This document shows positions 8,748 to 53,546 of a stretch of DNA of 64,000 nucleotides, in pieces. The stretch spans positions 4,608,001-4,672,000 of the forward strand of contig CM000150.2 in the NCBI GenBank assembly GCA_000004695.1. Direction: 5' to 3'. The translations under genes were made by a program, and so were the position numbers. Origin of the DNA: Dictyostelium discoideum (lineage: Eukaryota). Under the pieces are notes generated by a model. That model had not been told where the DNA came from. It did not search any database and saw nothing but the letters and a program-made list of their open reading frames with translations. Within the stretch, counting starts at the first letter, position 1. Each line of letters opens with the position of its first letter.

Positions 8748-10103
<1,356 letters not shown>

Positions 10104-10382
10104 AAAAAAATAAAATAAAAAATAAATAAAATAAAAATATTTAAGGAAGAATAAAAAGATATCTTTGATTTGTAAATATTTGTTTAATAAACAATAGTTT
10201 TTAAATCTTTATTTTGTTTTTTTAAATTTTAAATTTTAAATTTTAAATTTTAATTAGAACTATATGCAAATAACATTAAAATAAATATGGTGATACCGGA
10301 AAAAAAAATTTTTTTTAGATAATTTTATATTTAGATTTTTATTGTTAAAAATAATTATTTAAATAATTTTGTTATTACATTT

Positions 10383-11679
10383 TTATTCAATTTTTTTTGG
10401 TTTATATTTATTATGAGTATTGGATTTATTATTAGTTGGGTAACTATTTTTATAAAAAGCACCAAATAATACCAAAAATCCCAACATATAAACTATCATA
10501 CACCAATGCATGAACTTAATAAAGTTACAATCATAATAGATACTATATGCTGATGCACTTAAATTTACCTAACAATTTTTTAAAAAAAGAAATAAAAAAA
10601 ATAATAAGTTAGATCATATATGCATAAACCAATGTATTATTATTATTATTGTTTTTTTTTTGTATATTTACAGCAAATTGGATTAATTGAATTTGAGTTA
10701 AATATTTCTTCCACCAAACATTAATACCAAATAATGCTAAAGTGTAATAACTGTACATAATGGTATGAATAATAGAATTAACCATTGCTGATAAAAAGCT
10801 ATCACCACCACCTACATATGATAGATCTAACCACCATAGGATTGGCATTGTAGAATGATGCCACACATGTCTATGAAAATGCAAAGTTTGTTAGTTTATG
10901 AATAAAATAAAATAATAAATAATAAATAATAAATAATAAATAAAATACTTACAAAACTTTATTATTAAATTTAAAAAAAAAAAATTTATGATAATAAAAA
11001 AATTATTAATAATTTAAAATAAAAAAAAATAAAATTAAATTAAAAATTATTCTAAAGTACTTACATGTGATTTGATTATCTTTTTTTCTTAAAACCATAA
11101 AAAATGTATCCATAAATTCAATAAACTTTGAGAAATAGAATAACCATAATACTTTAGCCATCTATATTAAAAAAAATTTTAAATAATTAATTTATTTTGT
11201 TTGGTTTTTTTTTTTTTTTCAATTTTTTAAGGATTAATAAATGAAAATAAATAATAAAAAAACATTATACATACACCAATTCCTTTTTCAGTATAATCAA
11301 CTGGGTTACATATTGGGGAATAATCATTTGAAATTGCTTGATGTGCAATTTCAATTGTCATATATAAACTTAATAATGTGCAAACTGCATTATGAATAAT
11401 TAATGGATATTTCAATTCAAATGGTTTTTTATTTTTCATTATCTTTTGACCTAATTTGACAATTATTACATATCCAATAATTAAATAGATCATTTCATTT
11501 GGTCTACTTAATAATGGCCAATTTAAAACTCTTTCATCTAATTTAATTAATATAAAAAAATAAGTATCAATGGATTGGTCCCCAAAAAAAAAAAAAAAAA
11601 TAAAAAAATTAAACTGACCTCTTCTTGATAAATAATATTCATATCTTTGAGATAAATAATTAAAATAATTATCGATCAT
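10383..11679 (-). CDS. fatty-acid elongase ELO-family paralog (5 exons), convergent with 8748..10103
   Basis: Exons 11679..11619, 11537..11275, 11161..11061, 10870..10672, 10568..10383. It has the same motif set as the + strand paralog ([38 protein letters not shown]). Four intron positions are shared with it; the intron 3 position differs by one codon. The exon 3 donor has to be GTACTT, because a canonical GTAAGT lies 4 nt upstream but would break the frame. Confidence 0.6.
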
Positions 11680-11898
11680 TTTTTATATAATATATATATT
11701 TTTTTAATTTTATTATGGTTGAAGGTTAACCGGATTGTAGTTTTTTATCTGCCCTTTAAAAAAAAGAAAAAAATAAAAGAAAAAAAAAAAAAAATAAAAA
11801 ATTAATAATAAAAAATTAAATTAAAAAAAAAAAGAAAACAAAAAAATATCGTGTGTCGCAAAGTTTTTTTTTGTAAATGGACCAAAATTATGGATCTT

Positions 11899-11933
<35 letters not shown>

Positions 11934-12199
11934 ATTTTTTTATTATCAATTTTTTTTTTTTAATAATATAATTTTTTAATTATCACAAATGAAGTTCAAA
12001 AAAAAAAAAAAATTAAAAAATTGTAGAAAAAATTAAAAGTATATGTAGTCAAATATTGATTTCTACAAATAATTAATTTCTTTTCTTTTATTTTTTTTTA
12101 AAAAAAAAAAAAGATAAAAATAAAAAAAAAATAAAAAATAAAAAATTTTCAAATAAAAATATCAACCCACTTTTTTTTATTTTTGTTTTTTTTTCATCA

Positions 12200-12232
<33 letters not shown>

Positions 12233-12270
12233 TTCCAAATATATTACTTAATTAACAAACGAAATTCATT

Positions 12271-12351
12271 ATGCCTCCAAAGTTTGGTTCATCAGCCCCT
12301 AAATGTGGCGTTTGTGCTAAAAGGTAACAATAAATAATAATAATAATAATG

Positions 12352-12442
<91 letters not shown>

Positions 12443-12449
12443 TAACAAC

Positions 12450-12483
<34 letters not shown>

Positions 12484-13012
12484 TAATAAAAATAATTATA
12501 ATGATAATTATAACACATTATAAAAATACATATTAATCATTTCAATTATCATAAAAATACAGTGTTTACGCCGCAGAAGCCTCACCATGTACAGTAGATG
12601 GAAAGACTTTTCATAAAAGTCTGTAATTTTTCATTTAAACAAAAAAAAAAACTGAAATTTTGAACTATCAATTTAATATACATGATTTTATTAATATTTT
12701 TTTTACTTTTATTATCATTATTTTTTATAAATAATTAGGTTGTACCTTATGTTCTGATTGCAGAAAAGGACTTGATTCAACAACAATTTGTGAAAATGAA
12801 TCTGTAAGATATTATATTTAATTTGGGTTTATTTTAGTTTTATTTTATTTTCCCATAAATCAGTATTAATATAAAATAATTATTTTAGAAACTTTATTGT
12901 AAATCATGTTATGGAAGAAAATTTGGTCCAAAACTCTTTGGTTTCGGTATTTATCAACTAATTATAAAATCAAATCAATTAAAAAAAAAAAAATTCTCAA
13001 ATTTATTAATTA

Positions 13013-13088
<76 letters not shown>

Positions 13089-13128
13089 ATTTTTAGGTGG
13101 TGGTGGTGCCATTGCTCACACTGAATAA
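12271..13128 (+). CDS. small cysteine-rich LIM-domain protein, CRIP-like (5 exons)
   Basis: Exons 12271..12323, 12563..12618, 12739..12803, 12889..12946, 13097..13128. The spliced product is MPPKFGSSAPKCGVCAKSVYAAEASPCTVDGKTFHKSCTLCSDCRKGLDSTTICENESKLYCKSCYGRKFGPKLFGFGGGGAIAHTE. It has a CxxC-x17-HxxC-x2-C-x2-C-x17-C-x2-C LIM pattern and a GPKxFGFG tail as in vertebrate CRIP1. Introns 1 and 4 carry (AAT)n/(ATT)n repeats. Confidence 0.7.
12332..12500. repeat. (AAT)n microsatellite in LIM-gene intron 1; (ATT)n at 13014..13088 in intron 4
   Basis: Direct observation. They produce the spurious poly-Ile ORFs 12252..12518(-) and 12906..13124(+). Confidence 0.9.
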
Positions 13129-13707
13129 ATTTGAAATCATTATTATTATTTAAAAATTCTATTTAAAAATGTACAAATCATATGAAAAACAACAATAAAT
13201 TATTTTTTTCCCAAACAAGAAATTTAATTTTTTTTTTTTTTTTTTTTTTTTTTCAGGAAAAAGAATTAAATTTAAGTTTCAAATTATGAATTATTGGAAG
13301 AAAAAAAATATATATATATCAAATATAAATTAAATAATTCAATATTCAAAAACTAATGAAGAATATAGGTAGACAATATTCAATGCAATGTTATTTTTTA
13401 ACTTTTTACATTATTTTTTATTTTTTATTTTTTATTTTTGTTTGGTCATTTAATAGCATTTCGATTCAATATTTGGTAACCCCTCAAAATTAATTACAAA
13501 AATGAAAAATGAAAAATAAAATAAACAATAATTTAAAAATAAAATTTTTAGAAATAAATAAACAAGATAAAAAATAAAAATAACTTCTTTAAATAAATAA
13601 CTTTTTTTTTTTATTGATACAAATGATTAAAAAAATTTTTTGATTATTATTTTTAATAATATTATTATTATTAAAATTATTATTATTATTATTACTACTA
13701 TGATAAC

Positions 13708-13762
<55 letters not shown>

Positions 13763-13792
13763 TTATTATTATTATTATTTTTATTATTATTT

Positions 13793-16700
13793 TTATCTTC
13801 TAAATGAAGAAGAATCAAAACTTTCTTTTGTTGATGTGGAAGAATTATTTTTATAGGATAAACCGGACTCACCAACTCTTCTGGAATTTGAATTAAAATC
13901 TTCACGATTTGGAGTTACATAATCTAAATGAACAATATTAGTTGATTGTTTTAAACCAGTGAAATGACCTTGATTATAACAATAGAAAATTGAAAGTGAA
14001 GGAATGATTTCAGTGATAATTAAACCTAAGAAACTAAATGTAATATTTGAAGGATTTGCAGCAACTAAAATTAAAACGAAAACACAATGAATGATAAAAC
14101 CAATTGAACAAGCAAATGTAACTATAAATATTTTCTTTTGATGTTGGCTTGAGGAACTATTTCCGCTTGAACCACTGCCACCACCTGAACTACTACCACC
14201 ATTTGTACTACCACCATTTCTATTTTTTTTAATTGATCTCATTGATAGATATAATGAACCACCCAAATAAAGGAAAGCTGAACCAATAACAAAAGAAATT
14301 ATAGCTTGAATAATGGCATAAACAATTGAAACTACATATTGCGAGGTTGTGCTTGAAACTTCTAAAACGATTCTAGTACCACAATCATTACTTGGATGAT
14401 CTTCAGTATAATTGAATACCAATACAATTACAATGAATAATAAATAAAGTATAAGATTTGTAGCTAAAATTATAATTTTCAAACGTTTAAATAATGTTCT
14501 ACCAGAATCTTTAGAATTTACAATCATATACCAAAGTGAAACGATAATGGTAAAAGCTGTAAAATAAATAAAAGTTGGTAAAACCACTAAAATATAATCT
14601 GCACTTGAATTATTTTGAAGTGCACCACTTGGTATAATAAAGAAATAAATGGCTCTAATTAAAATGAAAATTGATACAATCACAATTAAAAAGTGTACCA
14701 ATTTAATTTGTTCGACACCTTTATATTTTCTAATAACAACCATTACAACTTGGAAAATACCCCAAATTGCTGTTAACATGAAAATACAAGCCAATGTATA
14801 AATTAAACCGGTTGCAGTTTTATCAAAAACTTCTTTCTCTTGACTTGACCAATTTTCAATACGAATAATTGGAAAGAATGATTTATCCTCTGTGAAATTG
14901 GTTAATATTGTACAAAGTAATTCACTTTCATCAACTGGCGATTTTTTAGTAAAAGTTTCAACATCCAATGGTCTTAATGGTGAATTTGAAGTTGAGATTG
15001 CAAAATCATAAATATCATAGGATTTTGAATATTTTGTACCATTAAATTGTAAACAAATTGTTAATGATAAAACACCTTGTGTATTAATAGTTATACCATC
15101 ACCTAAAATTGTACCAATAATTGCATCTTTATCATTTAGAATACCATAATTGTCAGGCTTTTTATATGATACGAAATTTGATGATAAAGTTTGTGCAATA
15201 GTTGATTTATAAAGTTGTTGAGAAACTTGTGATACCAATACTGATGTACAACCCGATTGTACTGATTTCTTAGTAAATTCAACTCTACCAAATGAAAAAT
15301 CATATGATGATTCTTCATTTGCACATGGTTTAGATTGACCTAATAATAATGCCGATGATGAGAAACAATCTGGTGAACCATTTTCAGAACAACTACAACT
15401 AATTGAACGTAAATTACCTTCAACTCTTTCCATTCTACATAATACTTCAGAACGATAAAGATCTGCAATATGAGTATTTACTGAATCATCCAATTCATTA
15501 AAAAGTTGTTCATAATTTAATACTTTTCTAACAGAGGTTGGATAAACATATTGATTGGTTCTCCATTGTGGTTTAATAGAGATACCACCTTGCCAAACTG
15601 CTGGAGTCCATTGGAAAATATTTTCCCAAGAATTTAATGATTCATTACCACATCCTGTACAAAGTTCTTCTGTCATTTGATTGAATCTAAAATTATAAGG
15701 TAAATTGTATGGACTATTATCAAGGATTTTACAACCCATTGGTGCTTCACATTCTTCACGTGTTGTTGCTGGTGCCCACCAAGTGAAACCTTCATCAGCT
15801 TGTAAATTACAAACTCTATGTGAACCCTCTGGATAATATGGGAAACAACCCATTGGTGAATCTGACTGATAGAATGTATCACAAGTTGGAGTTTGGAAAC
15901 CAGTTAAATAAGCGAAATGACCTCTAACACATTTACCCATGTTCTCTGGATAGTATGGTACATTTTCTGTTGTGAAAAAGTAAGAATCTGAACATTGACC
16001 TGCATTTTCACATTCTGCTTTGGTTGCACATTCAATTGGTTGAAGATAACATTGACTAAATGTAAAATCATAACATTCATCATATGGTTGATTTTCACAA
16101 TCTACCCATTGATAAATAAGATCAACTCCATCATCATTTAATGCAGCACATGCTTCTTTAGTTTTAGTATTTGCTAATTCACACATATAATTATCTTCAG
16201 ACCAAGTTGTATTTAAAATTGTTTGACAAACTGTTTCATTCATATAGAAGCTACCACCTTCAACACCACAACCACTATAACCTAAACCAACACATTCTTT
16301 ACCACATGGTAAATTACAATTACCATAATTATTTTCACAATCAGTTGGATCAACATCATATAATACTTCACCATTTGATAATATACAAACATTTGCTACA
16401 GTTGGTGATTTACATTGAACTTCATCAAAGTTATCGTCGAAATTAAAACAATCTGTTGAATTTGTTGAACAATAACCACAATACTCTTGAATTGCATTAC
16501 ATTTATCGATACAAGTTTGTTCGTCATCAACTTCAGGATCACAATCTGTTGGAATTTGACAGAATCCAATTGATTCACAAGTATCTAAATTTGATTGTAA
16601 TGAAAAACTCCAACCACCGATCTGACCATCGAAACAAGCATCATGTACAGTTACACAAGAATGATCTAAACAATTGGTTGTTGGATAACATGAATAATTA

Positions 16701-41482: not shown

Positions 41483-44400
41483 ATGGAAATCTTATTCTGG
41501 AAAGTTTTTAAAAATAAATATTTGTTTAGATTAATATTTGATGATGTAAAGAATCAAAGTATATATAGTGATCAAAGAAGACATATGATTTCAAAAAGAA
41601 TTAGATTTGAACAAATTCAATCATTAGAATGGTTAATTCAAAAGAAACAATATAATCTTTTAAAAGATAAATTAAAATCAAATCAACCAATACATATAAC
41701 TGAACAATCTATAAAGAGATTATTTCAAGATATTAAATCAATTGAAATTAAATCAAAACTTGGAAAACAAATAATTGAAATTTTAAAACTTTTATATCAC
41801 CACAAAAGAGATGAAATGAATACACTCGATTTAATTGAAACATCAATGATTTTTAATTCAAAAATTGCATTATCAACATTTTTAGAAATTTTCAATAATA
41901 CTACTGATGATAGTGAAGATGATGATGAAAATAATAATGAAAATAATAATAATAATAATAAATTATCAAAAGAATTATTTGATTTAGGTATAATTAATTC
42001 AAGTTTTGAATGTTTAAAATTTATAATTGAAAATTATTCAATTAATTATACAGAGTCAGATTTAATAAAGAATGCGTTGGATTCAAATGAACCAGATAGA
42101 ATGTTAGAATTTATTGAAATTGAATTAAAATTAGATTTAAAAGAATTGATTAATAAATATAGAGATAGGAAACAAAGTCATATTAAATGTTTATCAATTT
42201 ATTTTTTAAAATCAATTAGATATAAATTATTAATTTTAGAGAATAATTTCATTATTGATAAAGGTGATGATGGTGCACATAGTCAAACTATTTCAACGAC
42301 ATCATCGAATTTCGCTGCTATAATGGATGGTCCAAATAAGAATTCATTTCAAGAACAAGAGGAGAATTCTTCAAATTTAGATTTCAACAATTTAAAAGCA
42401 ATGCTATTGGAAAGATTTGATACGACTTTAAAGAGAACACCAATAATTGAATCAATGAAAAATGTTACAACAACTAATCAACTATTGGAATTACATAAAA
42501 AACATTTAGATTTACAATTTATATCATTCAATGTTATAAATGAAAGAGTTGATGATGAAATTCCAACATTTTTAAAATCGATTTTCTTAACTAGGAATAC
42601 ACTATTTCATCTTATTAAATTATCTTGTATGTATTTTAATTTGGATGCTTTGAATCTTTATTTTAAAGTTTCTAGTTCCGGTTGTGATTTAAGATTTCCA
42701 GATGCTGTAAATGTTTCATCATTCAATTATAATGGAATTAATAAATTGGTTCAATCTGAAACTAAAATAGTGGAATTTATAAATAAAGCCTTTGAAATAC
42801 TTTCAGAAAAACTACTTTATGAAAAAGATATCTTTAAAATCATTGTAAATGTATTATTAATTAAATATGATAGTAATGTAATTGAAGCAGTATTAAACAA
42901 TTGTTTATCTTTTTCAAGTCAATTTCTATCATTCATTTTAAATGATTCAATTAATGGTGATGAAGTTGTAAGGTTAATTTGGAAAAATCCAACAATACCA
43001 ATAGATAATTTATTAATAGTTTTATCAAGAAAACGTGAACCATTTAGAGAAAGAGGTTTATCATTATTCATTTCAAATCATACCGATCAAGATAAAATTA
43101 AAATTTTTAATAATATTTGTAAAGTTGATAGAATCTTATTAAAATCAAAAGGATTACAACCATCATTAACAAAATCCTATAGAAAGAAATTAATTGAAGA
43201 TTATTTACAATTAAATAAAAAATCATTATCAAATTCAATTAATATATTTAAACAATTAGATTTAGATTCAATTGAATTAAAAGATGAAATCATTTCATTT
43301 TTATTTAAAGATTTTATTTTAAATTCAATATTTAATAATGATAATGATTATGATAATGGTCAAGAAGAAGAAGAGGAGGAAGAAGATAAGGAAAATAAAA
43401 TTAAAATATTAAATGAAATTTTTACAAATATATCTCAAGTTTGTGGTGATGGTGAAAATCAAATAGTTTTTTCAATTGATTTATCAATTATTGAAAAAAT
43501 TACAATAATTTTTAAAATTTTAAAAAATAATTTTATAAATATTGAAATTATAAAGAAATCAATTGAAAAAGGATTTTCAGATGAATTAATTATAAAATTA
43601 TTTCAACTTTCAAAAGAATGTAATTCGATTATACCAAAGGATATAATTTTTAATAGTTTATTAGTTGATAAAAGATATTTTTTAGTTAGTAACCTTATTG
43701 AATCATTTAAAGAATCAAATGGTAAAATTCAATATTTTACACCATCACCATTTTCATTGGATCCAAGTTTTAGAGAATCAAGTTTAAATGTTGATAGATT
43801 ATTTACAAATTTAAAGAATAAACAATTTTTAAGTTCAAAAATTCCATTAGGTGCAGATTGGAATCTAACAAGTCATAATGAATTTCTTTTAGATTTTAAA
43901 TCTTCAAATTCAATTGCCAGTTGTTTCTTTAAGAGAAGTGATATTTTTGAACATTTAATTGAATTTTTAGATTTCAGTAGGTTTAAATCAATTTATTCTT
44001 TAGATCATTCATTTGATGAAAAAATAAAGAAATCATTACCTTCACTTATAAAAGCAAATAGATTAGATCTTTTACAATATTATTTCCCATTCATTCAATT
44101 TCAATCGTCAAATGAAGTTACACCATTAATAATGTTATCAATTCAATTGGGTAATATTCAAATTTTAAATTTCTTTTTAAACTATCCAACTTTTAAAAAC
44201 TCTGAAATACAATTAGATTTTCAAGAACTTTTTAGAGAATCTTTAAAATTTTGTCATTTTAATATTATTAAATTATTAATTTCAACCGTTTCAAATAGTA
44301 ATAATAATAAAAAGAATTCCCTTGAAATTAATTCAAATCAAATTTGTCATCTTATTATCAATAATAGATTAGAGATTTTAAAATACCTATACAAAGAAAG

Positions 44401-44713
44401 GTTATTGGGAATTTCTGATTTTCAAGATTTCTCACTTGATACTCGTACAAATTCAATCATTTCCAGAAAATCTTTATTTGCTACTCGTCTACAAAAAGAT
44501 AATTATACTTTCTTTGCAAATTATCTGTACCCAATTTTTATATCACCATCAAATATTATATTACCTGAAAAATTATTTTATTTTATATTAAAAATTAAAG
44601 AAAATGATTGTTTAGTTTTTAACGAAAAAAAAACAAAAAAAATCATTGAAATTCGTAATAACAAAAGATTAGAAAAATTAATAAAACAAAAAAATAAAAT
44701 GAAATTAACTTAA
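41483..44713 (+). CDS. hypothetical 1076-aa protein
   Basis: Single long ORF with Dictyostelium-typical composition. It has an N-terminal MEILFWKVFKNKYLFRLIF motif and an acidic/Asn tract. No family was recognised. Confidence 0.55.
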   Translation: MEILFWKVFKNKYLFRLIFDDVKNQSIYSDQRRHMISKRIRFEQIQSLEWLIQKKQYNLLKDKLKSNQPIHITEQSIKRLFQDIKSIEIKSKLGKQIIEILKLLYHHKRDEMNTLDLIETSMIFNSKIALSTFLEIFNNTTDDSEDDDENNNENNNNNNKLSKELFDLGIINSSFECLKFIIENYSINYTESDLIKNALDSNEPDRMLEFIEIELKLDLKELINKYRDRKQSHIKCLSIYFLKSIRYKLLILENNFIIDKGDDGAHSQTISTTSSNFAAIMDGPNKNSFQEQEENSSNLDFNNLKAMLLERFDTTLKRTPIIESMKNVTTTNQLLELHKKHLDLQFISFNVINERVDDEIPTFLKSIFLTRNTLFHLIKLSCMYFNLDALNLYFKVSSSGCDLRFPDAVNVSSFNYNGINKLVQSETKIVEFINKAFEILSEKLLYEKDIFKIIVNVLLIKYDSNVIEAVLNNCLSFSSQFLSFILNDSINGDEVVRLIWKNPTIPIDNLLIVLSRKREPFRERGLSLFISNHTDQDKIKIFNNICKVDRILLKSKGLQPSLTKSYRKKLIEDYLQLNKKSLSNSINIFKQLDLDSIELKDEIISFLFKDFILNSIFNNDNDYDNGQEEEEEEEDKENKIKILNEIFTNISQVCGDGENQIVFSIDLSIIEKITIIFKILKNNFINIEIIKKSIEKGFSDELIIKLFQLSKECNSIIPKDIIFNSLLVDKRYFLVSNLIESFKESNGKIQYFTPSPFSLDPSFRESSLNVDRLFTNLKNKQFLSSKIPLGADWNLTSHNEFLLDFKSSNSIASCFFKRSDIFEHLIEFLDFSRFKSIYSLDHSFDEKIKKSLPSLIKANRLDLLQYYFPFIQFQSSNEVTPLIMLSIQLGNIQILNFFLNYPTFKNSEIQLDFQELFRESLKFCHFNIIKLLISTVSNSNNNKKNSLEINSNQICHLIINNRLEILKYLYKERLLGISDFQDFSLDTRTNSIISRKSLFATRLQKDNYTFFANYLYPIFISPSNIILPEKLFYFILKIKENDCLVFNEKKTKKIIEIRNNKRLEKLIKQKNKMKLT

Positions 44714-44828
44714 AATAAAATTCTTATTTAAATTTTATTATTACTATGAAGATTTGTTTTAATTATTTATTTATTAAATTTAATTTTATTTTTTATTTTT
44801 CTTTATTATTTTCTTTTTTTGGTTGTAT

Positions 44829-45941
44829 TTATATACATAATAGAGATACTGAATTCATATCAGGAACACAATTTCCAGTTGATTGATCACAGTAGTGATT
44901 TCTACAAATTAATCCTATAAGAATAATGTCCACAACTTTTTTTGGTGGGCATGTAATATTTGTATGTGTACAACCATTTAGACCACATTGATCTATAGTG
45001 CATTTCTTTCCATCATTACAATTTGAATTATTCAATGTGAATTGGCAACCAGTGGAGGGATTACAGGTGTCATCAGAACATGGATTTCCATCTTCGCAAA
45101 CTATTGGAACTGGTAATGAACAACCATCTTCAGTACATGTACTATTTACACATTTATTACCATTTGTACAAATAGTATCATTTAATATTGAACCACATCC
45201 AAATAAGGGATGACAAAAATCTTCTGAACATGGGTTATCATCATCACAATCGACCTCTTGTTGAACACATCCATTGTCGGTACATATACCTTCGGAACAT
45301 GCACTTAGTGAATCACAATTCCAATCGTTTTTTTGTGAAACACATCCGTTTTTAAAATCGCAATAATCATCTGTGCATGGATTACCATCATTGCAATTAT
45401 CTTCTACGTATTTACAGCCAAACTCTCCACATACTCCACTTAGGACACAAGTAGAGAAGTTACTTGCTTTATTTGAACAAATGGTATCATTGGAAAAGTG
45501 GATGCATTCTCCAAGTATTGGGTCACAATAGTCGTTGGTACATTCATTATCATCATGGCAATCAATTTCATCGTATTCACAAATACCAGTTTCTCTATTA
45601 CAACCTAATGGAATTTGACATGGGTTTGGTGCTGGACAATTTACTTTTGGTATAGCAACACAACCACTTTGAGTATCACATAGAAACATATCACATAAAT
45701 TTTCTGGTGGGCATAATGAATTATTTGGAGTATTTTTAACACCATATCTATCACTACATGTGTCGACTGTACAATCAACTTCATCATCTAAATCTATTGT
45801 TTCATATAAACATGTTGAATTTCTGCAACCTATAAATGAATAACAATTTCTATTTTCAACGCAATAAGTTTCTCCACAATACTCTGAACAACAAAGTTTT
45901 ATAGCAAATAATAAAAATACTACAATATATAATAATTTCAT
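44829..45941 (-). CDS. secreted cysteine-rich protein with Dictyostelium CTDC-type repeats
   Basis: 370-aa ORF with a signal peptide (MKLLYIVVFLLFAIKLCCS) and about 12 repeats of a C-x-D/E-G-N-P-C-T/S-x-D-x-C...GC module (for example NCNDGNPCTDDYCDFKNGC, CEDGNPCSDDTCNPSTGC). This matches the Dictyostelium 'slime mold repeat' (Dicty_CTDC) found in extracellular-matrix proteins. Confidence 0.65.
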   Translation of the reverse strand: MKLLYIVVFLLFAIKLCCSEYCGETYCVENRNCYSFIGCRNSTCLYETIDLDDEVDCTVDTCSDRYGVKNTPNNSLCPPENLCDMFLCDTQSGCVAIPKVNCPAPNPCQIPLGCNRETGICEYDEIDCHDDNECTNDYCDPILGECIHFSNDTICSNKASNFSTCVLSGVCGEFGCKYVEDNCNDGNPCTDDYCDFKNGCVSQKNDWNCDSLSACSEGICTDNGCVQQEVDCDDDNPCSEDFCHPLFGCGSILNDTICTNGNKCVNSTCTEDGCSLPVPIVCEDGNPCSDDTCNPSTGCQFTLNNSNCNDGKKCTIDQCGLNGCTHTNITCPPKKVVDIILIGLICRNHYCDQSTGNCVPDMNSVSLLCI

Positions 45942-46028
45942 ATTATTTAAAATTAGATTTAATTATTATAATAAATTAAATAGAATGTAGTTTGTTTATT
46001 TAAAAAAAGAATTTAAAAAAAAAAAAAA

Positions 46029-46062
<34 letters not shown>

Positions 46063-46260
46063 GATTTTGGTTACCGAAAAAAGTTTGATTTAAATAAACG
46101 GTTAATTTTATTATGTAATTTTGAAATAAAATTTATGACGAAAAAAAAAAAAAAGGAAAGAAATCTGGTTTGGAGATTTTTAGCTTGTGGGCCAATCTAA
46201 AAAAAAAAAAAATAATCTTGAATTAAAAATCATTGAACGGGGCTAATCAAATTAATATTT

Positions 46261-46292
<32 letters not shown>

Positions 46293-46440
46293 CCCAAAGA
46301 TATTGATTTTTAAAATATTAGACCCAATAAATTTAAAATTTTTCAGTTTTTATCTTTAGAAATGGAGTGATGAAAAAATTTTTTTTTTTTTTTTTTTTTT
46401 TAATTTAATTTTTAATTAATTTAAATTGAGAATCGTAAAA

Positions 46441-46590
46441 TTTATTGGGCAACTTTTAAAAAAAAACAAAATGTTTGGGCAACTTTTTAAAAAATTTATT
46501 GGGCAACTTGATCCTAAAAAACAAAATTTATTGGGCAACTTTTTAAAAAAAACAAAATGTTTGGTCCTTTAAAATATTATGGGTCAATTA
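46441..46590 (+). promoter_or_regulatory. cluster of 4-6 copies of a TTGGGCAACTT(TT) motif 150-300 bp upstream of the 46733 gene
   Basis: The motif occurs as tttattgggcaactttt (46441), tgtttgggcaacttttt (46473), tttattgggcaacttg (46495) and tttattgggcaacttttt (46528), with degenerate copies tgtttggtcc and attatgggtcaatt. Related GGGCCAATC and GGGGCTAATC sequences occur at 46190 and 46238. These are GC-containing boxes in an otherwise greater-than-90% AT promoter. Confidence 0.4.
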
Positions 46591-46732
46591 ATTCACAAAA
46601 ATCATTATTTTAAAGCAAAGGAAAATTTCAGGTAATACTATTTAAACTTAATAGTTTTTTTTTTAAAATTTTAAATACATTATATTTTTTTTTTAAAAAA
46701 AAAAAAATTTAATCACTATCGATTTTATCAAA

Positions 46733-47617
46733 ATGAAAAAAGTTATCTTTTTATCTTTAATTGTTTTTTTATGTTTATTACTTTTACCTTCAAATGATGC
46801 TCATATAGTAAATGATCCCACATTACCAGATTATATTGGTTTGGTTAGAGGTGGTAAGATTTATTTCTTTTAATTAAAATTGAAATTTTAATTTTAAAAA
46901 AACTAATTATATTTCATTTTAGGAATTTGTAGTATTCCAGTTTATGGTGCAGCCATAGATTCTTGTTTATATTTTGTATTCAATTTGGTATGTATTATTA
47001 AATTATTAAATTATGATAAAAAAGCTTTAAAATATTAATTTTAAAATCTAGTTTTATCCAAAACAACCAGAAGAACCAAAAGTAACGTAAGTAAAACACT
47101 TTTTATAAAAATAAAAGATATATATTGTAAATATATTTACAAATAATTTTAAAATTTAATTTAATTTAGAATGAAAGAGTTTAACGAAAGGTTGGAATTT
47201 ATTGCAAAAGATATGAAAACCTATACCAATAAAGTCATTAATGCAAGTGTTCTTCAAACATGCAGATATCAATTTAAAACTTTGAAAAAATCTTCAGATA
47301 ATTATATGGATATGCTCAATATATGGAAAAAAGAATTTGGTGCAACTGGTTTAACTACAGAAGAAACTAAAAACAATTTACCACCAGTGTTTTATGTTTT
47401 TTTAAGTAAATTGGAAGATTGTTTAATACAATTTTCAGATCCAACTCGTATTAGCCTCTTAGCCAAATTGTATATTGATACTGCAGTAATATACTCAGCA
47501 CTACTCCGTGATGCTAATTATAATGGAATTTCAATGGGTTTACATCCAGGAATTGTAAATGGAACAAACAAAGATATAATATTTAGTGCTAAAATTCGAT
47601 TACATTCACTTGATGTA

Positions 47618-47698
<81 letters not shown>

Positions 47699-48612
47699 CT
47701 AATTCTTTATTATGATTACATGTTAAATAGGTGTTTTCAAATTATATGATTATTTTACCACAAATATTAATTCAAAATGATAATAGATGTAGAACAAATT
47801 CAAATGGAAATTGGCGTTGTGAAGATAAATTTCCAGTACCAGATTGGAGCGGAACTATTTCACTATTCTTGTACTCAGATGTTACAAGATATGACCGTGA
47901 GGTAGTTTATAAACCAACCTCGACATCCTCAACAGGTGAAAGAATCAGTTGGGAACGTGGAGATAATACACAGAAAGGTGATAGTGGAACAATTATTATT
48001 CGTGACTTTGCAGATGTTGGTAGAAATATTAAAAAAGGTGTAGTTTGGACGTTGCCTTATGAAAGACCTCAACAATCTTTTGATTTTTTAACAGGATGCT
48101 ATGGAATTTACGTTCAATCTTATCCCTATAGAAAGTATGTTTCAGATGATGCTGTTGATATAACTTTTGTTGAGACTGAAAATCAACCAAATTATGATAT
48201 AGCCTTCATTCAAAGCTTTTTGTTATCCAAGCCAAACAATCAAGTTAAAATCAGAATTTATTATTCATATCACTTAAATAAAACCTATGAATATATACCA
48301 AATAACTTTCAACTAAAAGTAATAAAAACAAACTCAAATGGATATGAACTTAATAAAATTAGAAGAATTCTTGCCTCTGGATCTGATGACCTTTATTATT
48401 TAAATAAAACATACAGTTTTCATACTCAAGGATCAAGTAAAAACTTGGTTACTCGTTTAACATTCCATCAAAATAGAAGTTATCAATTGTATGATAGATT
48501 TGTATTTGAAACTCCAAAATTTGATGTAGGAAAGGATTTCTCTGTAATTCTATTACCAATCTCAAGATTTTCAATCCATTTATTTTCTATAGAAGTTATA
48601 TCTGATAAATAA
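46733..48612 (+). CDS. hypothetical secreted protein (5 exons); parent of the decayed copies at 50.5-51.2 kb
   Basis: Exons 46733..46853 (signal peptide), 46923..46987, 47052..47086, 47170..47614, 47731..48612. Donors are GTAAGA, GTATGT, GTAAGT, GTAAGT. Intron 4 is GTAAGT plus about 78 T plus a short acceptor region. The track ORFs 47171.. and 47731.. are the exon 4/5 bodies. No homologs were recognised. Confidence 0.55.
47621..47698. repeat. roughly 78-nt poly(T) homopolymer making up most of intron 4 of the 46733..48612 gene
   Basis: The intron is GTAAGT followed by an uninterrupted T run and then ctaattctttattatgattacatgttaaatag. Confidence 0.9.
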
Positions 48613-48992
48613 AATATTTAATCATGAGATAATATTTTTTTATTTTCTTAAATAAAATAATTACTCCAATAAAAATTTAGTTTTCTTTATTTCTACTTTT
48701 TTTTTTTTATTTTTTTTATTTTTGGTGTAGTAATTATTTTATTTTTGTTTTTATTTCTATTTTTTCAACCTCATTAACTCTCCTCTGTCTTAATTAGAAT
48801 TAAAACAAGTAAAAAAAAATTTCAAATAAATTAATTTTTACCAGCACACTGTTAATAATATTTTTTTTTTTTTTTTTTTTGGGAGATCTAACCACAACCA
48901 ACCTTTAATGTGGTTATTATTTTTTTTTTTCAGTGATTTCAAATTTTTAATATAAATTGATTTTTACAATAATAATAATAATTAATAATAAT

Positions 48993-49054
<62 letters not shown>

Positions 49055-49371
49055 TAATAATAATAATAAAAATAATAATAAACTGAATTGGAGAGCACTA
49101 AAATTATTAACTTGTAAAAAGTTTTTTTGAAGTAATTATCTCACAAGTATGGGTTAAAATTAATTTACGTTTTTATCACCCCAACAGTTTATTAAATAAA
49201 TTAATTTTTTATTTATAAATAATTAATATTATTTTTTTTTTTTTCTATAATAATTAATATTATTATTTTAGGTATTTAAACAATTATAAAAAAAAAATTA
49301 ATTTCATTTTCAAAAAATTTTATTCAATTGTAAATAACCAATTAAAATAAAATAAATTATTAAATTTAAAA

Positions 49372-50181
49372 ATGAAATTATTATTAGTTTTATTATCTCT
49401 TCTTTTAACATTTTCAGTATTGGTACAATCTGAAGAAGCCTATTTTGCTTTAAAAACCTATCAAGACAATGATTTTATTTTCAAATTAACTGATTCAGAA
49501 AAAATACAAAAAGCCAGAGATATTTTGTCTGGAAGTATGTTATAAATTTTAACAAACTTTAATAATAATAGTAACAATATACACGATTTTATAAAAATAT
49601 CCATATGCTAAAAATATTTTTTTATTTTTAAAATATAGAGGAAACTGAAGAAGTTCATGTAATGGGTAGAATTAGAAAGTCAAATAAAGACTATAATCCA
49701 AGTAAATATTGTTTTGACTTTTAATTAATTTTTTTATAATTATTTTACTAATTTCATTTCATCACTTATAGAGTATTCCTTTCATATTGACCCAGATACA
49801 GTCACATTTTTCAGTATGGCCATTGAAGTTTGTGATGCTACAGCTAGTTATGTAGAAGATTACCTTGATGAGGCCTGTGGTGGTGAGTATTTTAATATAT
49901 AAATTATAAAATTTTAATTAAAAACTAATACAATATTATTATTATTATTATTATTATTATTTTTTTTTATTTTTTTTTTATTTTTTTTATAAAATAAATA
50001 ATAGCTTTCCTCCCAGGGTATGTATTTAATTAAATATAATTTTGAAAAAATTAAAAACTACAATTTGATTAACACATATTTTTTTATAAAAAAAAAAAAT
50101 ATATATATAAATAATAAATGATTCAATAGTTGCTTCTGGTGTCCATGGGCTTCAAAGCTAACAAAAGAAATTAAAGTTTAA
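49372..50181 (+). CDS. small hypothetical secreted protein (4-5 short exons)
   Basis: Exons 49372..49534 (signal peptide MKLLLVLLSLLLTFSVLVQS), 49639..49701, 49772..49882, an optional 13-nt micro-exon 50005..50017, and a terminal exon 50130..50181. The product ends ...FHIDPDTVTFFSMAIEVCDATASYVEDYLDEACG(AFLP)GCFWCPWASKLTKEIKV. The first three exons are reasonably secure. The 3' end is uncertain. Confidence 0.4.
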
Positions 50182-50535
50182 GAGTTAAATCAAATTAGCC
50201 ATGATAAATCAAATTAAATAATTTTTAAAAAAATTATTAATAAAGTTTTTTTTAACTAAAGTTTTTATAAAAAAAAATATGTATATTCTTTATAAAATAT
50301 TTTCTTGTTTTTAAATACTGCACTTCTTTGTGATGGTTATTTCAATGGATTTTAATGGTTTTACATAAATCATAAATAAATGAAACAATATCAGATGAAA
50401 TGACTTTTTCAACAAAACTATAACTACATTCAAAAGAGGTATTTTCTAACTATATGTATATTTTGTCAAGGTTTAATGTGGCTGCTGAAATTAATATTGT
50501 AATTCTAGCAGACATAAGTCCATATTAATTTTGGC

Positions 50536-50690
50536 ATGGGACACTTGGAACATAAATCCTATAGGCACCTATAGGATATTACAAAATCAAAACTTTGTTT
50601 ATACCTTAATTACCAAATTATACCTTGATCTATATTTTTACCAACATCAGCAAAGTAACTTATATGAGGAATACCTCTATCACCATAATA
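50536..50690 (-). pseudogene. frameshifted fragment homologous to exon 5 of the 46733..48612 gene
   Basis: The minus-strand translation gives ...GDRGIPHISYFADVGKNIDQGIIW*LRYKQSFDFVISY..., which matches GDSGTIIIRDFADVGRNIKKGVVWTLPYERPQQSFDFLTGCY of the parent gene. It has an internal stop and frameshifts and no flanking exons. It sits in a GC-richer patch (about 35% GC) that is atypical for local intergenic DNA. Confidence 0.4.
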
Positions 50691-50840
50691 ACATCAATAC
50701 ATTACTTTGGTATTAATTCCCATGCAACTCTATCTCGACCTTTTATTGAGGGGTAAAATTGTACAAAAAGATCATATGTTTTAACATCAGAGTATAAAAA
50801 CAGTGATATTTTACCACTTCAATCTGGCACTGGATCATAA

Positions 50841-51171
50841 ATTAAAAAAGTTATCCTTTTATCATTTTTTGTACTTCCTTCCTTTGGTTCTGGTTATAGT
50901 TTAAATGACCCGACTACTCCTAATTATGTTGGTTTGGTTCGTGGGGGTATTTATTTTTTTTTTAATTTATTTTAAAATAATAATTAATAATTTTGTTTTT
51001 TTATAAGGTATATGCTCTATCCCTACTTACGGGGCAATAGTAGATTCTATTTTCGGATTTGTTTTTGAAACTGAAACTTTGGTTGTTTCTTCAAATAAAT
51101 TTACAATACTCATTTTACCAATACAAAGATTTTCCACCCATTTATTAACCTTAGAGGTTATTATTGATTAA
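50841..51171 (+). pseudogene. internally deleted, start-less copy of the 46733..48612 gene (signal-peptide exon + exon 2 fused to the C-terminal end)
   Basis: The fragment encodes KKVILLSFFVLPSFGSGYSLNDPTTPNYVGLVRG|GICSIPTYGAIVDSIFGFVF...FTILILPIQRFSTHLLTLEVIID*, which parallels the parent MKKVIFLSLIV...NDPTLPDYIGLVRGG|ICSIPVYGAAIDSC...FSVILLPISRFSIHLFSIEVISDK*. The ATG is replaced by ATT (ataaATTaaaaaag versus caaaATGaaaaaag). The first intron is retained at the same position, and about 450 codons of the middle are absent. Confidence 0.5.
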
Positions 51172-51265
51172 TAAAAAAAATAAAAAAATAAAAATAAAAT
51201 AAAATTATTAAATTAAAAAAAAAAAGAAAAACATCTTATATACAAATGTTTATTAGAGTGTACAA

Positions 51266-51315
<50 letters not shown>

Positions 51316-51321
<6 letters not shown>

Positions 51322-52875
51322 TAATTTTGATTCTGATTGTTGGTCAGCAATATTTGAATTTCTTAACCATAAAATTAAATTTGTTCTTTCACCACTTGTT
51401 AAACCTAATGCACCATGACGATGAACACCAATATGAATTAAAGCTACACCTGGAATATGTTTGAATTCAAAGTATTCGTTATGAGTTTCAGGTTTATCTA
51501 AAATTCCTTTAAAGTATAAAGAACCGCCAGTGAATTCGCTACCTAAACATAAATTTACAGTTATATCAGATTCATCATAATGGAAACCTAATTCTTTTTC
51601 TTTATCCATTTTATATTGAACTGCAAATGCATGATGACTATTTAACTTTTCACCATTGTAATCTTTATATAGAATTGATGTGAATAATGATAAATAATCT
51701 TCTCTAAGTTGTTTAAAAAACTCGGTGAATCCCATTTCATCCAATACTGCGCCATAATTATTCATAGAGTTTGGTCTTGCTGTTGGTAATCCTGTATTTT
51801 TAAAATTTTCGATCTCTTCTAATAATTTACTAAAATAAAAATAAAAATGAAAATAAAATTAAAATTAAAATTAGATTTTTTTACTTTTGTTAATCAATTA
51901 TAATAATAATAAAATTAAATTACATACGTGCAAAATTCCATTGTAAATATTCTAAAAGAATAAATTCTAGTTTCAGTTAATTTCGTTAATGCTTTTAAAA
52001 GGTCATCTTGGTTTTTAGTTTTCTTATATTGTTTAATTGGTTCTATGAAATCTTTATCAAAATACTCTTCTCTCAATTCAAAAATTTCTGGATATTTTCT
52101 TTTATATAATTTCGAAATCATATTAATTCTAGCCTCTCTCATTTTTAATAGTTTATTAAATCCTATATTATATTAAATATTAAATATTAAATTGGAAAAA
52201 AAAAAAAAACTATTAGTATAAAAAAAAAAAGAAATAATAAAATTGAATATAATTACCATTTTGTGAATTTTGAATACGCTTTAGTTCTGATTTGGTTGCG
52301 TTATGATGCTTTGAACAACATTGTTGCGAATCTTCATTGTCATCATGTTCATGATGACCATCAGTATTACAACATCCCTTATGTTCGTGTTGGTGATGCT
52401 CATGCTCATGCTCATGCTCATGATCATTGTCATTGTCATGTTTTTCGTTGTGTGTTTCATCTTCATCAGCATCATCATCACTTTCGTCGGTATCACTATC
52501 TAAATCTTTCTCCGATACAATAGTATAGGTTTTATTTGGTACCAAATCATAATTATTATCCTCATCTGGGAAGTATTCTTCACCATTTCCGTCTACAACG
52601 ATGAGACCTCCTTCAGTTTGAAATAAATCATCCAATATATCTTTGGTTGAATATTTTTTGGCCAATCTTAATTCTCCATAACCTTTTTTTAAAATTGTAT
52701 AAATAATAATAAAAAAAAAGAAAAAAAATAAAAAAAGAAAATAGTTAATAAAAATGATATTGTTTTTTTTTTTTTTTTTAATATTCTATTACTTACCCAA
52801 ACTTGTGAAATGAATAATTTCATTGTTGATGTTGTTGTTATTGTTGTTGTTTGAAGAAGAAATTGAAGTTGTCAT
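51316..52875 (-). CDS. 2OG-Fe(II) oxygenase (PKHD/PiuC-type, PF13640-like) with N-terminal Asn tract and His/acid-rich region (4 exons)
   Basis: Exons 52875..52797, 52682..52257, 52162..51928, 51829..51316, all GT..AG (GTAAGT, GTAATT, GTATGT) with phases consistent. The His-rich ORF (track 52213..52665, ...HEHEHEHEHHQHEHKGCCNTDGHHEH...CCSKHH) ends only about 70 nt before the 'start' of the oxygenase ORF (track 51915..52142), and a GTAATT..TATAG intron joins them in frame. The oxygenase part carries HYDESD...H.HG...GERTNLILW (HxD...H, R), the Fe/2OG ligand pattern. Confidence 0.55.
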
Positions 52876-53546
52876 TTTGTTTATTATTGAGTTTTAAAAT
52901 TATTATTGGAAAGTTATTTGTTTATTTGTTTGAATAAAAAAATTATTTAGAACTTATATATATATATATATTTAATATTATTTATTTAAATTTGAATATA
53001 AAAATAAAAAAATAAAAATAAAAAAAATATTTTGTTTTAAAATTTTAAGTGGGAAAGGGGGTGTGTTATTATTATTATTATTATTATTATAATTATTTTT
53101 ATTATAATTGTTTTTTGCTTTATTTTAAAAATATAAAAGAAAAGAAAAAAAAAAAAAAATTTTATTTAGTTATTTTTAAAATATCTATGCTTTTTTTTTA
53201 ATATCTATAAAAAGGTAATCGATTTTTTTTTTTTAATTTTTTAATTTTTTTTTATTTTTATTTTTAAATTAAAAAAAAAACGATTTCAATTTTTTTTCTT
53301 TTTTTTCTCATTTTTATTTTTTTTTTATTTTTTTATTTTTTTATTTTTTTTTATTTTTTTATTTTTTTTTTTTTTTTAATTTAAATTTGAAATTAAAAAA
53401 TGAAAAAAAAAAAATGGAAATAAAGAAAATAAATTAATTAATTAACCTGATTATTCGGATTTTAGGAAAAAACCATGAAACTTGAATTAAATAATTATTT
53501 AATTAAAAATAATATTTTTTTTATTACTCTGTTTTTTTAAATATTA

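Follow-up and report, generated by a model that had tools for sequence, protein, structure and literature searches.

A scrambled pseudogene relic, very probably of an old third paralogue, in a Cry-like secreted-protein gene cluster of Dictyostelium discoideum AX4

About 2 kb downstream of the secreted-protein gene DDB_G0270330, the genome of Dictyostelium discoideum AX4 carries an interval of less than 0.9 kb (50309-51171) in which pieces of the same gene family lie out of order, one of them on the opposite strand. The locus raises the question from which gene these pieces are derived, how they came to be rearranged and whether any of them still has a function. Coordinates refer to the window, the whole 64-kb stretch of DNA that was analysed, unless another sequence is named. 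A sequence-only reading of the window had proposed a copy of DDB_G0270330 that was inverted, deleted and inactivated. We conclude that the interval is very probably the dead, scrambled remnant of an old third member of the family, here called copy 3.

DDB_G0270330 (46733..48612, plus strand) is intact. Its five exons (46733-46853, 46923-46987, 47052-47086, 47170-47614 and 47731-48612) encode a secreted protein of 515 amino acids, and the translation of the spliced model is 100% identical to XP_646712.1. A literature search on the gene found no papers. The UniRef label of the protein points to the three-domain Cry toxins of Bacillus thuringiensis, and a search of the PDB with the family profile returned Cry1 chains only, residues ~132-284 of the profile matching residues ~90-238 of Cry1, i.e. 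the helical domain I. Moreover, the N-terminal half of the family protein is predicted to be helical and the C-terminal half to be beta-rich, as would suit a Cry-like protein. Unlike Cry toxins, DDB_G0270330 is only 515 amino acids long and has a eukaryotic signal peptide; a Pfam scan of the protein gave no family match, and the Cry1 E-values are marginal (0.0075-0.38). An AlphaFold2 model built from a 7-sequence family alignment had a mean pLDDT of 41.8, too low for fold comparison. The family has expanded in tandem, with three copies in the sister lineage D. cf. discoideum (L001) and two in D. dimigraforme. The cluster is small and fast-evolving, and its secreted-protein genes are putatively Cry-toxin-like.

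The spliced 515-aa protein was used as tblastn query against the whole window. Outside DDB_G0270330 itself, matches were confined to 50340-51168. On the plus strand, amino acids 191-231 matched at 50340-50465, 1-63 at 50841-50972, 41-60 at 51007-51066 and 479-514 at 51058-51168; on the minus strand, amino acids 257-297 matched at 50833-50717 and 305-342 at 50684-50580. A family HMM run over all six frames of the window likewise found only DDB_G0270330 and the relic pieces (i-E 6e-11 to 8e-6). The suspicion of decayed family pieces within 50280-51172 is hereby borne out, and direct comparison of 46733-48612 with the relic region gives 68-81% nucleotide identity for the pieces. To the L001 orthologue described below, identity is 80-96%. 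Altogether four non-overlapping family pieces, named A to D after their order in the gene, extend over 50309-51171 in the order B (plus), a 70-bp filler, C' (minus), A (plus) and D (plus). A, D and part of C had been noticed from the sequence alone; B had been missed.

Piece B (50309..50474, plus strand) corresponds to family amino acids ~185-234 and is 86.8% identical by blastn to L001 14908-15074; tblastn and HMM both match it. In it, exons 4 and 5 are joined with no intron 4 between them, and it contains two in-frame stops. The filler (50475..50544, GC 34%) separates it from piece C' (50545..50838, minus strand), an inverted segment of amino acids ~257-350 that is 79.8% identical by blastn to the minus strand of L001 15407-15146 and is matched by tblastn and HMM in two frames. 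C' has a stop at a conserved Trp codon (PVPD*S), one further stop and one frameshift. An opposite-strand piece with frameshifts had been proposed correctly, but at 50536-50690; its homology ends at 50838, and it abuts the plus-strand remnant.

That remnant begins with piece A (50839..51070, plus strand; 81.7% by blastn to L001 14164-14404), which retains 2-3 nt of the 5' leader, the signal-peptide exon 1 (50841-50946), intron 1 (50947-51007) and the start of exon 2 (from 51008), the last three as had been read from the sequence. The intron is bounded by GT..AG, lies in phase 1 and has a length of 61 nt (69 nt in DDB_G0270330) at 1.7% GC; splice sites and reading frame were checked. The proposed loss of the start codon in a conserved context also holds, since the relic reads AAA-ATT-AAAAAAGTTATCC (ATT at 50841-50843) where the L001 orthologue reads AAA-ATG-AAAAAAGTTATCC. 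Piece D (51056..51171, plus strand; HMM i-E 6e-11) comprises the last 36 codons and the stop TAA (51169-51171), and 111 of its 116 nt are identical to L001 15752-15867 (95.7%). It runs into the downstream flank and the convergent OGFOD2-like gene, and the alignment to L001 extends to position 53000 at 89.9%. Spliced A and D form 89 open codons ending in ...LEVIID*. Exon 2 is indeed joined in frame to the C-terminus; the internal deletion amounts to about 418 codons (amino acids 61-478 of DDB_G0270330) instead of the 450 first estimated. The stop had been called parental in type, which it is not: it lies one codon before that of DDB_G0270330 (...VISDK*), where proteins of the family typically end (...IID*).

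The origin of the pieces became apparent from related lineages. In L001 and in three further genomes (L002, L003 and the sibling strain L004), the locus has the order toxin-like gene, BP74_N gene and then OGFOD2-like gene. In L001, the slot between the latter two holds a collinear copy 3, itself disabled, which lacks intron 4 and keeps introns 1-3. All four AX4 pieces map without overlap to this gene alone, and the C-terminal ...LLTLEVIID* of the relic is of the copy 3 type. At the protein level, the relic is 77% identical (140/182 aa) to L001 copy 3 vs 56% (104/186 aa) to DDB_G0270330. Because of this difference the relic is, by sequence comparison, the orthologue of an older, separate third paralogue, and DDB_G0270330 is its paralogue, not its parent. 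Two further candidate comparators, P0008 and P0009, were set aside, as they belong to another locus, beside an aspartic protease gene and a TgrO1-like gene. Automatic gene callers produce chimeric models over the relic and its orthologue (e.g. P0004 in L001; models of 110 and 675 aa in L004).

Divergence of the OGFOD2-like gene from AX4 is 3.0-3.7% in L002 and L003 and 5.2% in L001, which makes L001 the outgroup and collinearity the ancestral condition. Of the relic, L002 and L003 have retained no more than a stub of about 110 bp from B, in the same place and with the same flank/B junction as AX4; C', A and D are gone. In L002, ~45 bp stand in place of the relic; compared with C', A and D as possible sources, they gave AT-rich matches only. 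Piece B differs by 8.2% between AX4 and L002, about two to three times the coding rate and neutral-like. The idea of a mutation burst in the rearranged pieces was dropped, as the changes in B are ordinary and lineage-specific.

Relative to the gene order A-x-B-g-C-y-D, the relic has B, filler, inverted C, A and D; the 314-bp promoter is missing, as are segments x, g and y. Four junctions lie inside 0.9 kb, with sources within 1.7 kb of the reference gene. The clearest is the A/D fusion, which falls exactly on a 15-nt direct repeat, GATTTGTTTTTGAAA (51056..51070, plus strand). Exact pattern search and three-way junction comparison found this repeat once in the relic and twice in L001 (14390 and 15752). 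Since it is present twice in the collinear orthologue and once in AX4, the junction is unambiguously a repeat-mediated deletion of 1.35 kb, and since it encodes (G/R)FVFE at both places in the gene, the deletion is in frame. The flank/B junction zone (TTTTAAAT, 50309-50316), being common to AX4, L002 and L003, is the only datable one. Its microhomology is about 7 nt and imperfect (TTTAAAC vs TTTATAC), that of C'/A is 2-3 nt, and both are uninformative in DNA so AT-rich. For the filler at B/C' no template emerged. Aligned as nucleotides with either strand of L001 copy 3, or searched by k-mers in the window and the compared loci, it showed no similarity above shuffled controls; in a three-frame protein comparison 75 of 200 shuffles scored the same or higher, and the stretch expected to follow C in four family genes did not match it at the nucleotide level either.

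These data are compatible with the following history. Copy 3 would probably have been a pseudogene before the rearrangement and before the split from the L001 lineage, as suggested by one shared codon position, where the conserved Trp codon TGG has become a stop in both lineages, though a different one (TGA in AX4, TAA in L001). After the split, a break may have occurred just upstream of the ATG. During its repair, by template switching or templated insertion, two segments from further downstream in the gene would have been copied to where the promoter had been, one of them in inverse orientation, and a deletion between the two 15-nt repeats would then have removed the original copies of these segments. 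Alternatively, all four junctions might stem from one multi-switch replication event. The end state does not reveal in what order the events took place or how many there were, and an inversion and deletions in a tandem duplicate lead to the same arrangement.

Replication template switching and templated-insertion repair (FoSTeS/MMBIR, polymerase-theta-type end joining) make complex local rearrangements in other eukaryotes. The relic resembles their products in its four clustered junctions, the inverted segment, the filler at one junction, the homology at one other and sources within about 2 kb. It differs in that no segment is present twice and a single event is not demonstrated, and microhomologies carry no information in DNA of 75-90% AT. 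The A/D junction, which keeps exactly one perfect copy of the repeat, agrees in every respect with direct-repeat deletion by replication slippage, single-strand annealing or MMEJ, a process that accounts for this one junction of the four only. A bolder proposal is that the relic records one sub-kilobase, multi-breakpoint template-switching event in a social amoeba, a miniature chromoanasynthesis that would have brought copies of two downstream segments, one inverted, to the promoter of the gene itself, and that the coincidence of breakpoint and module boundary could mark a recurrently fragile or recombinogenic site. In AX4, a module of at least 6 kb (CTDC, toxin-like gene, BP74_N and spacer) is present twice, inverted and about 57 kb apart, and the upstream breakpoint of the relic lies about 6-14 bp from the end of the window's homology to the second module. 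A search of that second module (L008) for the missing relic segments found none, nor were there family HMM matches. We regard the proposal as decidedly doubtful.

Other origins have to be weighed against a single rearranged copy 3. Tandem duplication of copy 3 in the common ancestor of AX4, L002 and L003 would lead to the same end product and the same lack of function: the upstream copy would have lost its 5' half, giving flank/B, and its 3' end, with C inverted, and the downstream copy would have undergone the A/D repeat deletion. Such a route suits a family that expands in tandem, lets a simple deletion make flank/B while A survives downstream, and fits the 15-nt repeat at A/D equally well. 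It needs at least four events, however, with the C'/A breakpoint used twice, and the zero overlap of the four pieces on the reference gene is expected from one copy and coincidental from two. Two copy-3 genes were found in none of the lineages examined (L001, L002 and L003), and we consider this origin unlikely. Far less probable still is the initial proposal, in which a recent duplicate of DDB_G0270330 was inverted, deleted and inactivated by a transposon whose remains would be 50280-50830. The family member about 2 kb upstream, the shared signal-peptide exon and intron 1 position, the raised GC of the patch and a genuine DNA transposon, which a sibling strain carries about 110 bp upstream of the relic, all speak for it, and lesions and an inverted segment are present as proposed, but their source is copy 3 and not the neighbour. 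The patch was said to have about 35% GC; it has 27.6% (pieces 23-34%), which remains clearly higher than the 7-13% of local intergenic DNA and equals exon GC, as its coding ancestry explains. Except for the filler, 50280-50838 is gene-derived (B and C'), leaving no recognizable transposon remnant in the relic. No terminal repeats of its own were found in 50280-50830, and elsewhere in the window 50250-50840 matches only DDB_G0270330 and a few short, weak AT-rich stretches. The transposon of the sibling strain, L004, is a separate matter. This 3.4-kb element (L004 11430-14864, flanked by window 44001-50199 and 50191-53173) has inverted terminal repeats of 245 nt (86% complementarity), an Integrase_H2C2 ORF and a duplicated target site TTAGC. 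The insertion is polymorphic, the AX4 site (50195..50199) being empty and unduplicated, and 50250-50840 has no match to the element. A tRNA gene near the insertion, as an explanation of targeting, was not found. Tdd-4, a DNA transposon of Dictyostelium, has inverted terminal repeats of about 145 bp and an integrase-like ORF. By this description, the L004 element is like it in its long terminal inverted repeats, the 5-bp target duplication and the ORF with an integrase zinc-binding domain, and unlike it in repeat length.

It is barely conceivable that piece B is a processed, retro-copied fragment. B does read through exon 4/exon 5 without an intron, and intron 4 is present in DDB_G0270330, L001 copy 1 and the D. 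dimigraforme gene P0006. The collinear L001 copy 3 lacks it as well while keeping introns 1-3, so that the loss is a property of the copy 3 lineage rather than of the fragment; moreover, piece A keeps intron 1, and neither a poly(A) tract nor a target-site duplication lies beside B. An assembly error in the AX4 reference as the source of the scrambling seems next to impossible. The surroundings are AT-rich and repetitive, and the first AX4 assembly is old and Sanger-based, yet all 1131 nt of 50200-51330 recur with 100% identity in the independent assembly GCA_054883475.1, which is not a copy of the reference since it differs by a nearby 3.4-kb insertion, and the flank/B junction is common to L002 and L003. 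Finally, the relic or a part of it might be functional, as a short non-ATG secreted peptide, as a non-coding or antisense RNA directed at the family, or as 3' UTR or terminator of the OGFOD2-like gene. The conservation of D (95.7% between AX4 and L001, against 80-87% for A, B and C') and the 89-codon open frame of A and D could hint at residual constraint, for instance as 3' UTR of the convergent gene, and C' would be antisense to the family if transcribed by read-through from BP74_N. On the other side, the ATG is absent and an in-frame TAA (50838-50840) stands directly before the ATT. No ORF in the relic exceeds 61 aa (the longest is out of frame) and no ATG-initiated ORF exceeds 33 aa; an open frame of 89 codons would be within chance for about 270 nt at such divergence. 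The longest exact match to either AX4 family gene is 12-13 nt, A/T-rich and too short for small-RNA targeting. Despite its conservation in L001, piece D is missing altogether from L002 and L003. Because these lineages, only about 3% diverged from AX4, share flank/B and have wholly lost C', A and D, the relic is dispensable. A function is thus very improbable.

A single old copy 3, broken up in place, remains the reading that we hold with considerable confidence, and it includes that the relic would now be without function and drifting neutrally. The relic has family homology, a kept intron 1, disabling lesions and a syntenic orthologue in relatives. It is very probably a non-processed pseudogene of the ordinary kind, with an unusually well-resolved local rearrangement. 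Like other such pseudogenes in birth-and-death tandem families, it keeps homology to its paralogues and the position and phase of intron 1, has lost its start, has acquired stops and frameshifts, sits in a syntenic slot, diverges in a neutral-like manner and is progressively lost in sister lineages. Decay usually leaves a gene collinear; here, by contrast, the order of the pieces has changed and one of them is inverted, all in less than 0.9 kb.

The main use of the result is in annotation, where the interval should be treated as a pseudogene, the remnant of a third member of the family, and neither as a gene nor as a transposon. Nothing established is overturned by it. Within the D. discoideum species complex, the locus provides a dated series of gene death, from collinear but disabled to scrambled to almost deleted, and this series shows the quick turnover of a Cry-like secreted-protein cluster.

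The neighbouring gene (window 46733-48612) was modelled as five spliced exons encoding a 515-amino-acid protein with a signal peptide; the protein matches DDB_G0270330 (Dictyostelium discoideum AX4, chromosome 1) at 100% identity. When this protein was compared with the whole window by tblastn, matches besides the gene itself were confined to 50340-51168. On the plus strand these comprised residues 1-63 (50841-50972), 41-60 (51007-51066) and 479-514 (51058-51168), as well as residues 191-231 (50340-50465), a piece unreported in the sequence-only reading; residues 257-297 (50833-50717) and 305-342 (50684-50580) matched on the minus strand. In all six frames of the 64-kb window, matches to a family HMM were confined to the gene and the relic pieces, so chance is excluded and the homology claimed from the sequence alone is borne out. 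Equally correct was the description of the plus-strand remnant: ATT replaces the start codon in a conserved context, intron 1 is retained (phase 1, GT..AG), and exon 2 is joined in frame to the final 36 codons and the stop. The spliced frame has 89 open codons but lacks an ATG and is immediately preceded by an in-frame TAA. The internal deletion, estimated at 450 codons, measures about 418. The minus-strand piece, placed at 50536-50690 and about 250 bp upstream of the remnant, spans 50545-50838 and abuts it. GC content of the patch, given as about 35% and locally unusual, does far exceed the 7-13% of intergenic DNA nearby, but its value is 27.6%, equal to that of exons. An inverted, deleted and inactivated family member was thus the right kind of description.

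The suspicion that 50280-50830 is a transposon remnant which mediated the rearrangement did not hold. The stretch 50280-50838 is composed of gene pieces and shows no mobile-element features; its matches elsewhere in the window are limited to the neighbouring gene and, weakly, a few short AT-rich stretches. Neither does it match the transposon found in the sibling strain locus L004, a 3.4-kb element (L004 11430-14864) inserted at the position of window 50195-50199. It is bounded by terminal inverted repeats of 245 nt (86% complementary) and flanked by a duplicated 5-bp target (TTAGC); an ORF within it encodes an integrase zinc-binding domain (Integrase_H2C2). The element resembles the DNA transposon Tdd-4. 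As the cause of the relic it was rejected: it is a polymorphism beside the relic, its insertion lies outside it, and the TTAGC site of AX4 is empty. The automatic gene models of L004 (11800-12198, 12435-15783) are chimeric, one of them linking the transposon ORF with the relic's inverted piece.

Regarding parentage, the sequence-only reading took the relic for a decayed copy of the neighbouring gene. Among the family hits, P0004 ('D. cf. discoideum', GCA_054859205.1) is a chimeric gene model (10001-14966 of its locus, L001), which joins a pseudogenic copy 2 to the start of copy 3. L001 holds three family copies followed by an OGFOD2-like gene, which also follows the relic in the window. By blastn of the window against L001, all relic pieces map to the third copy: B (50309-50474) to 14908-15074 with 86.8% identity, C' (50545-50807) to 15407-15146 on the minus strand with 79.8%, A (50839-51070) to 14164-14404 with 81.7%, and D (51056 onwards) to 15752 onwards with 89.9%, unbroken into the next gene. 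The relic is therefore the orthologue of a separate, older paralogue rather than a decayed form of the neighbouring gene, because the protein identity of its pieces is 77% to L001 copy 3 versus 56% to the AX4 neighbour.

Copy 3 of L001 is collinear, yet dead, carrying a signal-peptide frameshift, several substitution-type stops and further frameshifts. A conserved Trp codon is TGG in the neighbouring gene, TGA in the AX4 relic and TAA in L001 copy 3. This suggests, without proving it, that copy 3 was already dead in the common ancestor. Intron 4, in the neighbouring gene (47615-47730) mostly an unbroken run of about 80 T residues, is shared with L001 copy 1 and a D. dimigraforme gene. Copy 3 lacks it precisely, in L001 and AX4 alike, and retains introns 1-3 (sites compared: window 50340-50474, L001 15000-15060 and, at a further comparison locus, L007 10950-10970), which reads as a clean single-intron loss in the copy 3 lineage. 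A retro-copy origin of B for want of intron 4 was rejected, since the intron is also missing from the collinear copy; the intron-less B is therefore a trait of the lineage.

The collinear gene has the order flank F, promoter P, A, x, B, g, C, y, D, while AX4 has F, B, a 70-bp filler, inverted C, A and D. Lost in AX4 are P (314 bp), x (503 bp), g (51 bp) and y (344 bp). L001 contains the 15-mer GATTTGTTTTTGAAA both at the end of exon 2 (14390) and in the C-terminal region (15752), AX4 only at 51056; the A|D junction thus reads unambiguously as a deletion at this repeat. Because each L001 copy encodes (G/R)FVFE, loss of the sequence between the two necessarily preserves the reading frame. The C'|A junction is direct, with no more than 2-3 nt of homology to A preceding the former start codon. 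The flank|B junction falls within TTTTAAAT (50309-50316), an imperfect 7-nt match of the two source sites, uninformative at such AT-richness. No source of the filler (50475-50544) was detected. Piece D (51056-51171) is identical between AX4 and L001 at 111 of 116 nt (95.7%), compared with 80-87% for the other pieces; the stop codon of the convergent OGFOD2-like gene is about 150 bp away, and D may belong to the 3' UTR of that gene.

A simple deletion cannot be the origin of this structure, since A is still found downstream of flank|B. The alternatives are that B and C were placed upstream of A, by copying or by transfer, or that the locus once held two copies of the gene. The most economical path found has two steps. 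A break just upstream of the ATG would have been repaired by copying B and then C, from the opposite strand, in the place of the promoter; recombination between the 15-nt repeats would then have removed the original x-B-g-C-y. This path accounts for the total absence of overlap among the four pieces. A single replication event with multiple template switches fits equally well, as does a tandem duplicate followed by inversion and deletions, and the end state does not discriminate among these three histories.

The neighbour's family counts nine proteins in a large protein collection, all from Dictyostelium. No Pfam domain was found; UniRef labels the family 'Pesticidal crystal protein N-terminal domain-containing', and the sole PDB matches of the family profile are Cry1 toxins, at domain I with marginal E values (0.0075-0.38). 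An AlphaFold2 model of a family protein (pLDDT 41.8) is too poor for use. The distant members P0008 and P0009 (43-45% identity) lie at another locus, beside genes for an aspartic protease and a TgrO1-like protein (L005 and L006, from D. citrinum and another D. cf. discoideum), so the family occupies two genomic sites at least. In its promoter region (46430-46570), DDB_G0270330 contains 4-5 spaced copies of (T/G)TT(A/T)TTGGGCAACTT, each surrounded by A-rich spacers, which could be a repeated regulatory element. Between this gene and the relic sits a gene for a small secreted BP74_N-domain protein (49373-50181).

AX4 holds a second copy of the neighbouring gene, DDB_G0270366, which is 98% identical. 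In L004 and L008 (the second module locus), two modules of CTDC gene, toxin-like gene, BP74_N gene and spacer form an inverted pair separated by about 57 kb; at the second, the BP74_N gene has the reverse orientation with respect to the toxin-like gene. Comparison of L008 (GCA_054883475.1 record 209926-231773) with window 44001-50303 gave 91.7% identity in the gene part versus 79-82% in the BP74_N and spacer part, which suggests gene conversion across the toxin-like gene. Inter-module homology runs as far as window 50303, nearly coinciding with the flank|B junction (about 6-14 bp away). Just past the second module (L008 14100-14200, minus strand) we noticed by eye a short fragment resembling protein-kinase subdomains VIb-VII (HTDIK...DFGRAK) with an in-frame stop, probably another gene relic.

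L004 (GCA_054883475.1) is 100% identical to the window across 50200-51330, which rules out mis-assembly as the source of the scrambled structure. This strain may be AX2, since a 2025 study of long-read genomes included AX2 (PMC12745789). L002 and L003, from assemblies labelled D. discoideum, have the gene order of the AX4 locus and keep, between the BP74_N and OGFOD2-like genes, just the first ~110 bp of B. The OGFOD2-like gene of AX4 diverges from theirs by 3.0-3.7%, compared with 5.2% for L001, which makes L001 the outgroup and the collinear arrangement ancestral. Their flank|B junction is identical in position to that of AX4 and is therefore older than the split, and C', A and D were deleted later in L002 and L003. 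Between AX4 and L002, B diverges by about 8%, 2-3 times the coding rate. This loss of pieces in close relatives argues strongly that the relic has no function; it is an ordinary pseudogene relic with a well-resolved history.
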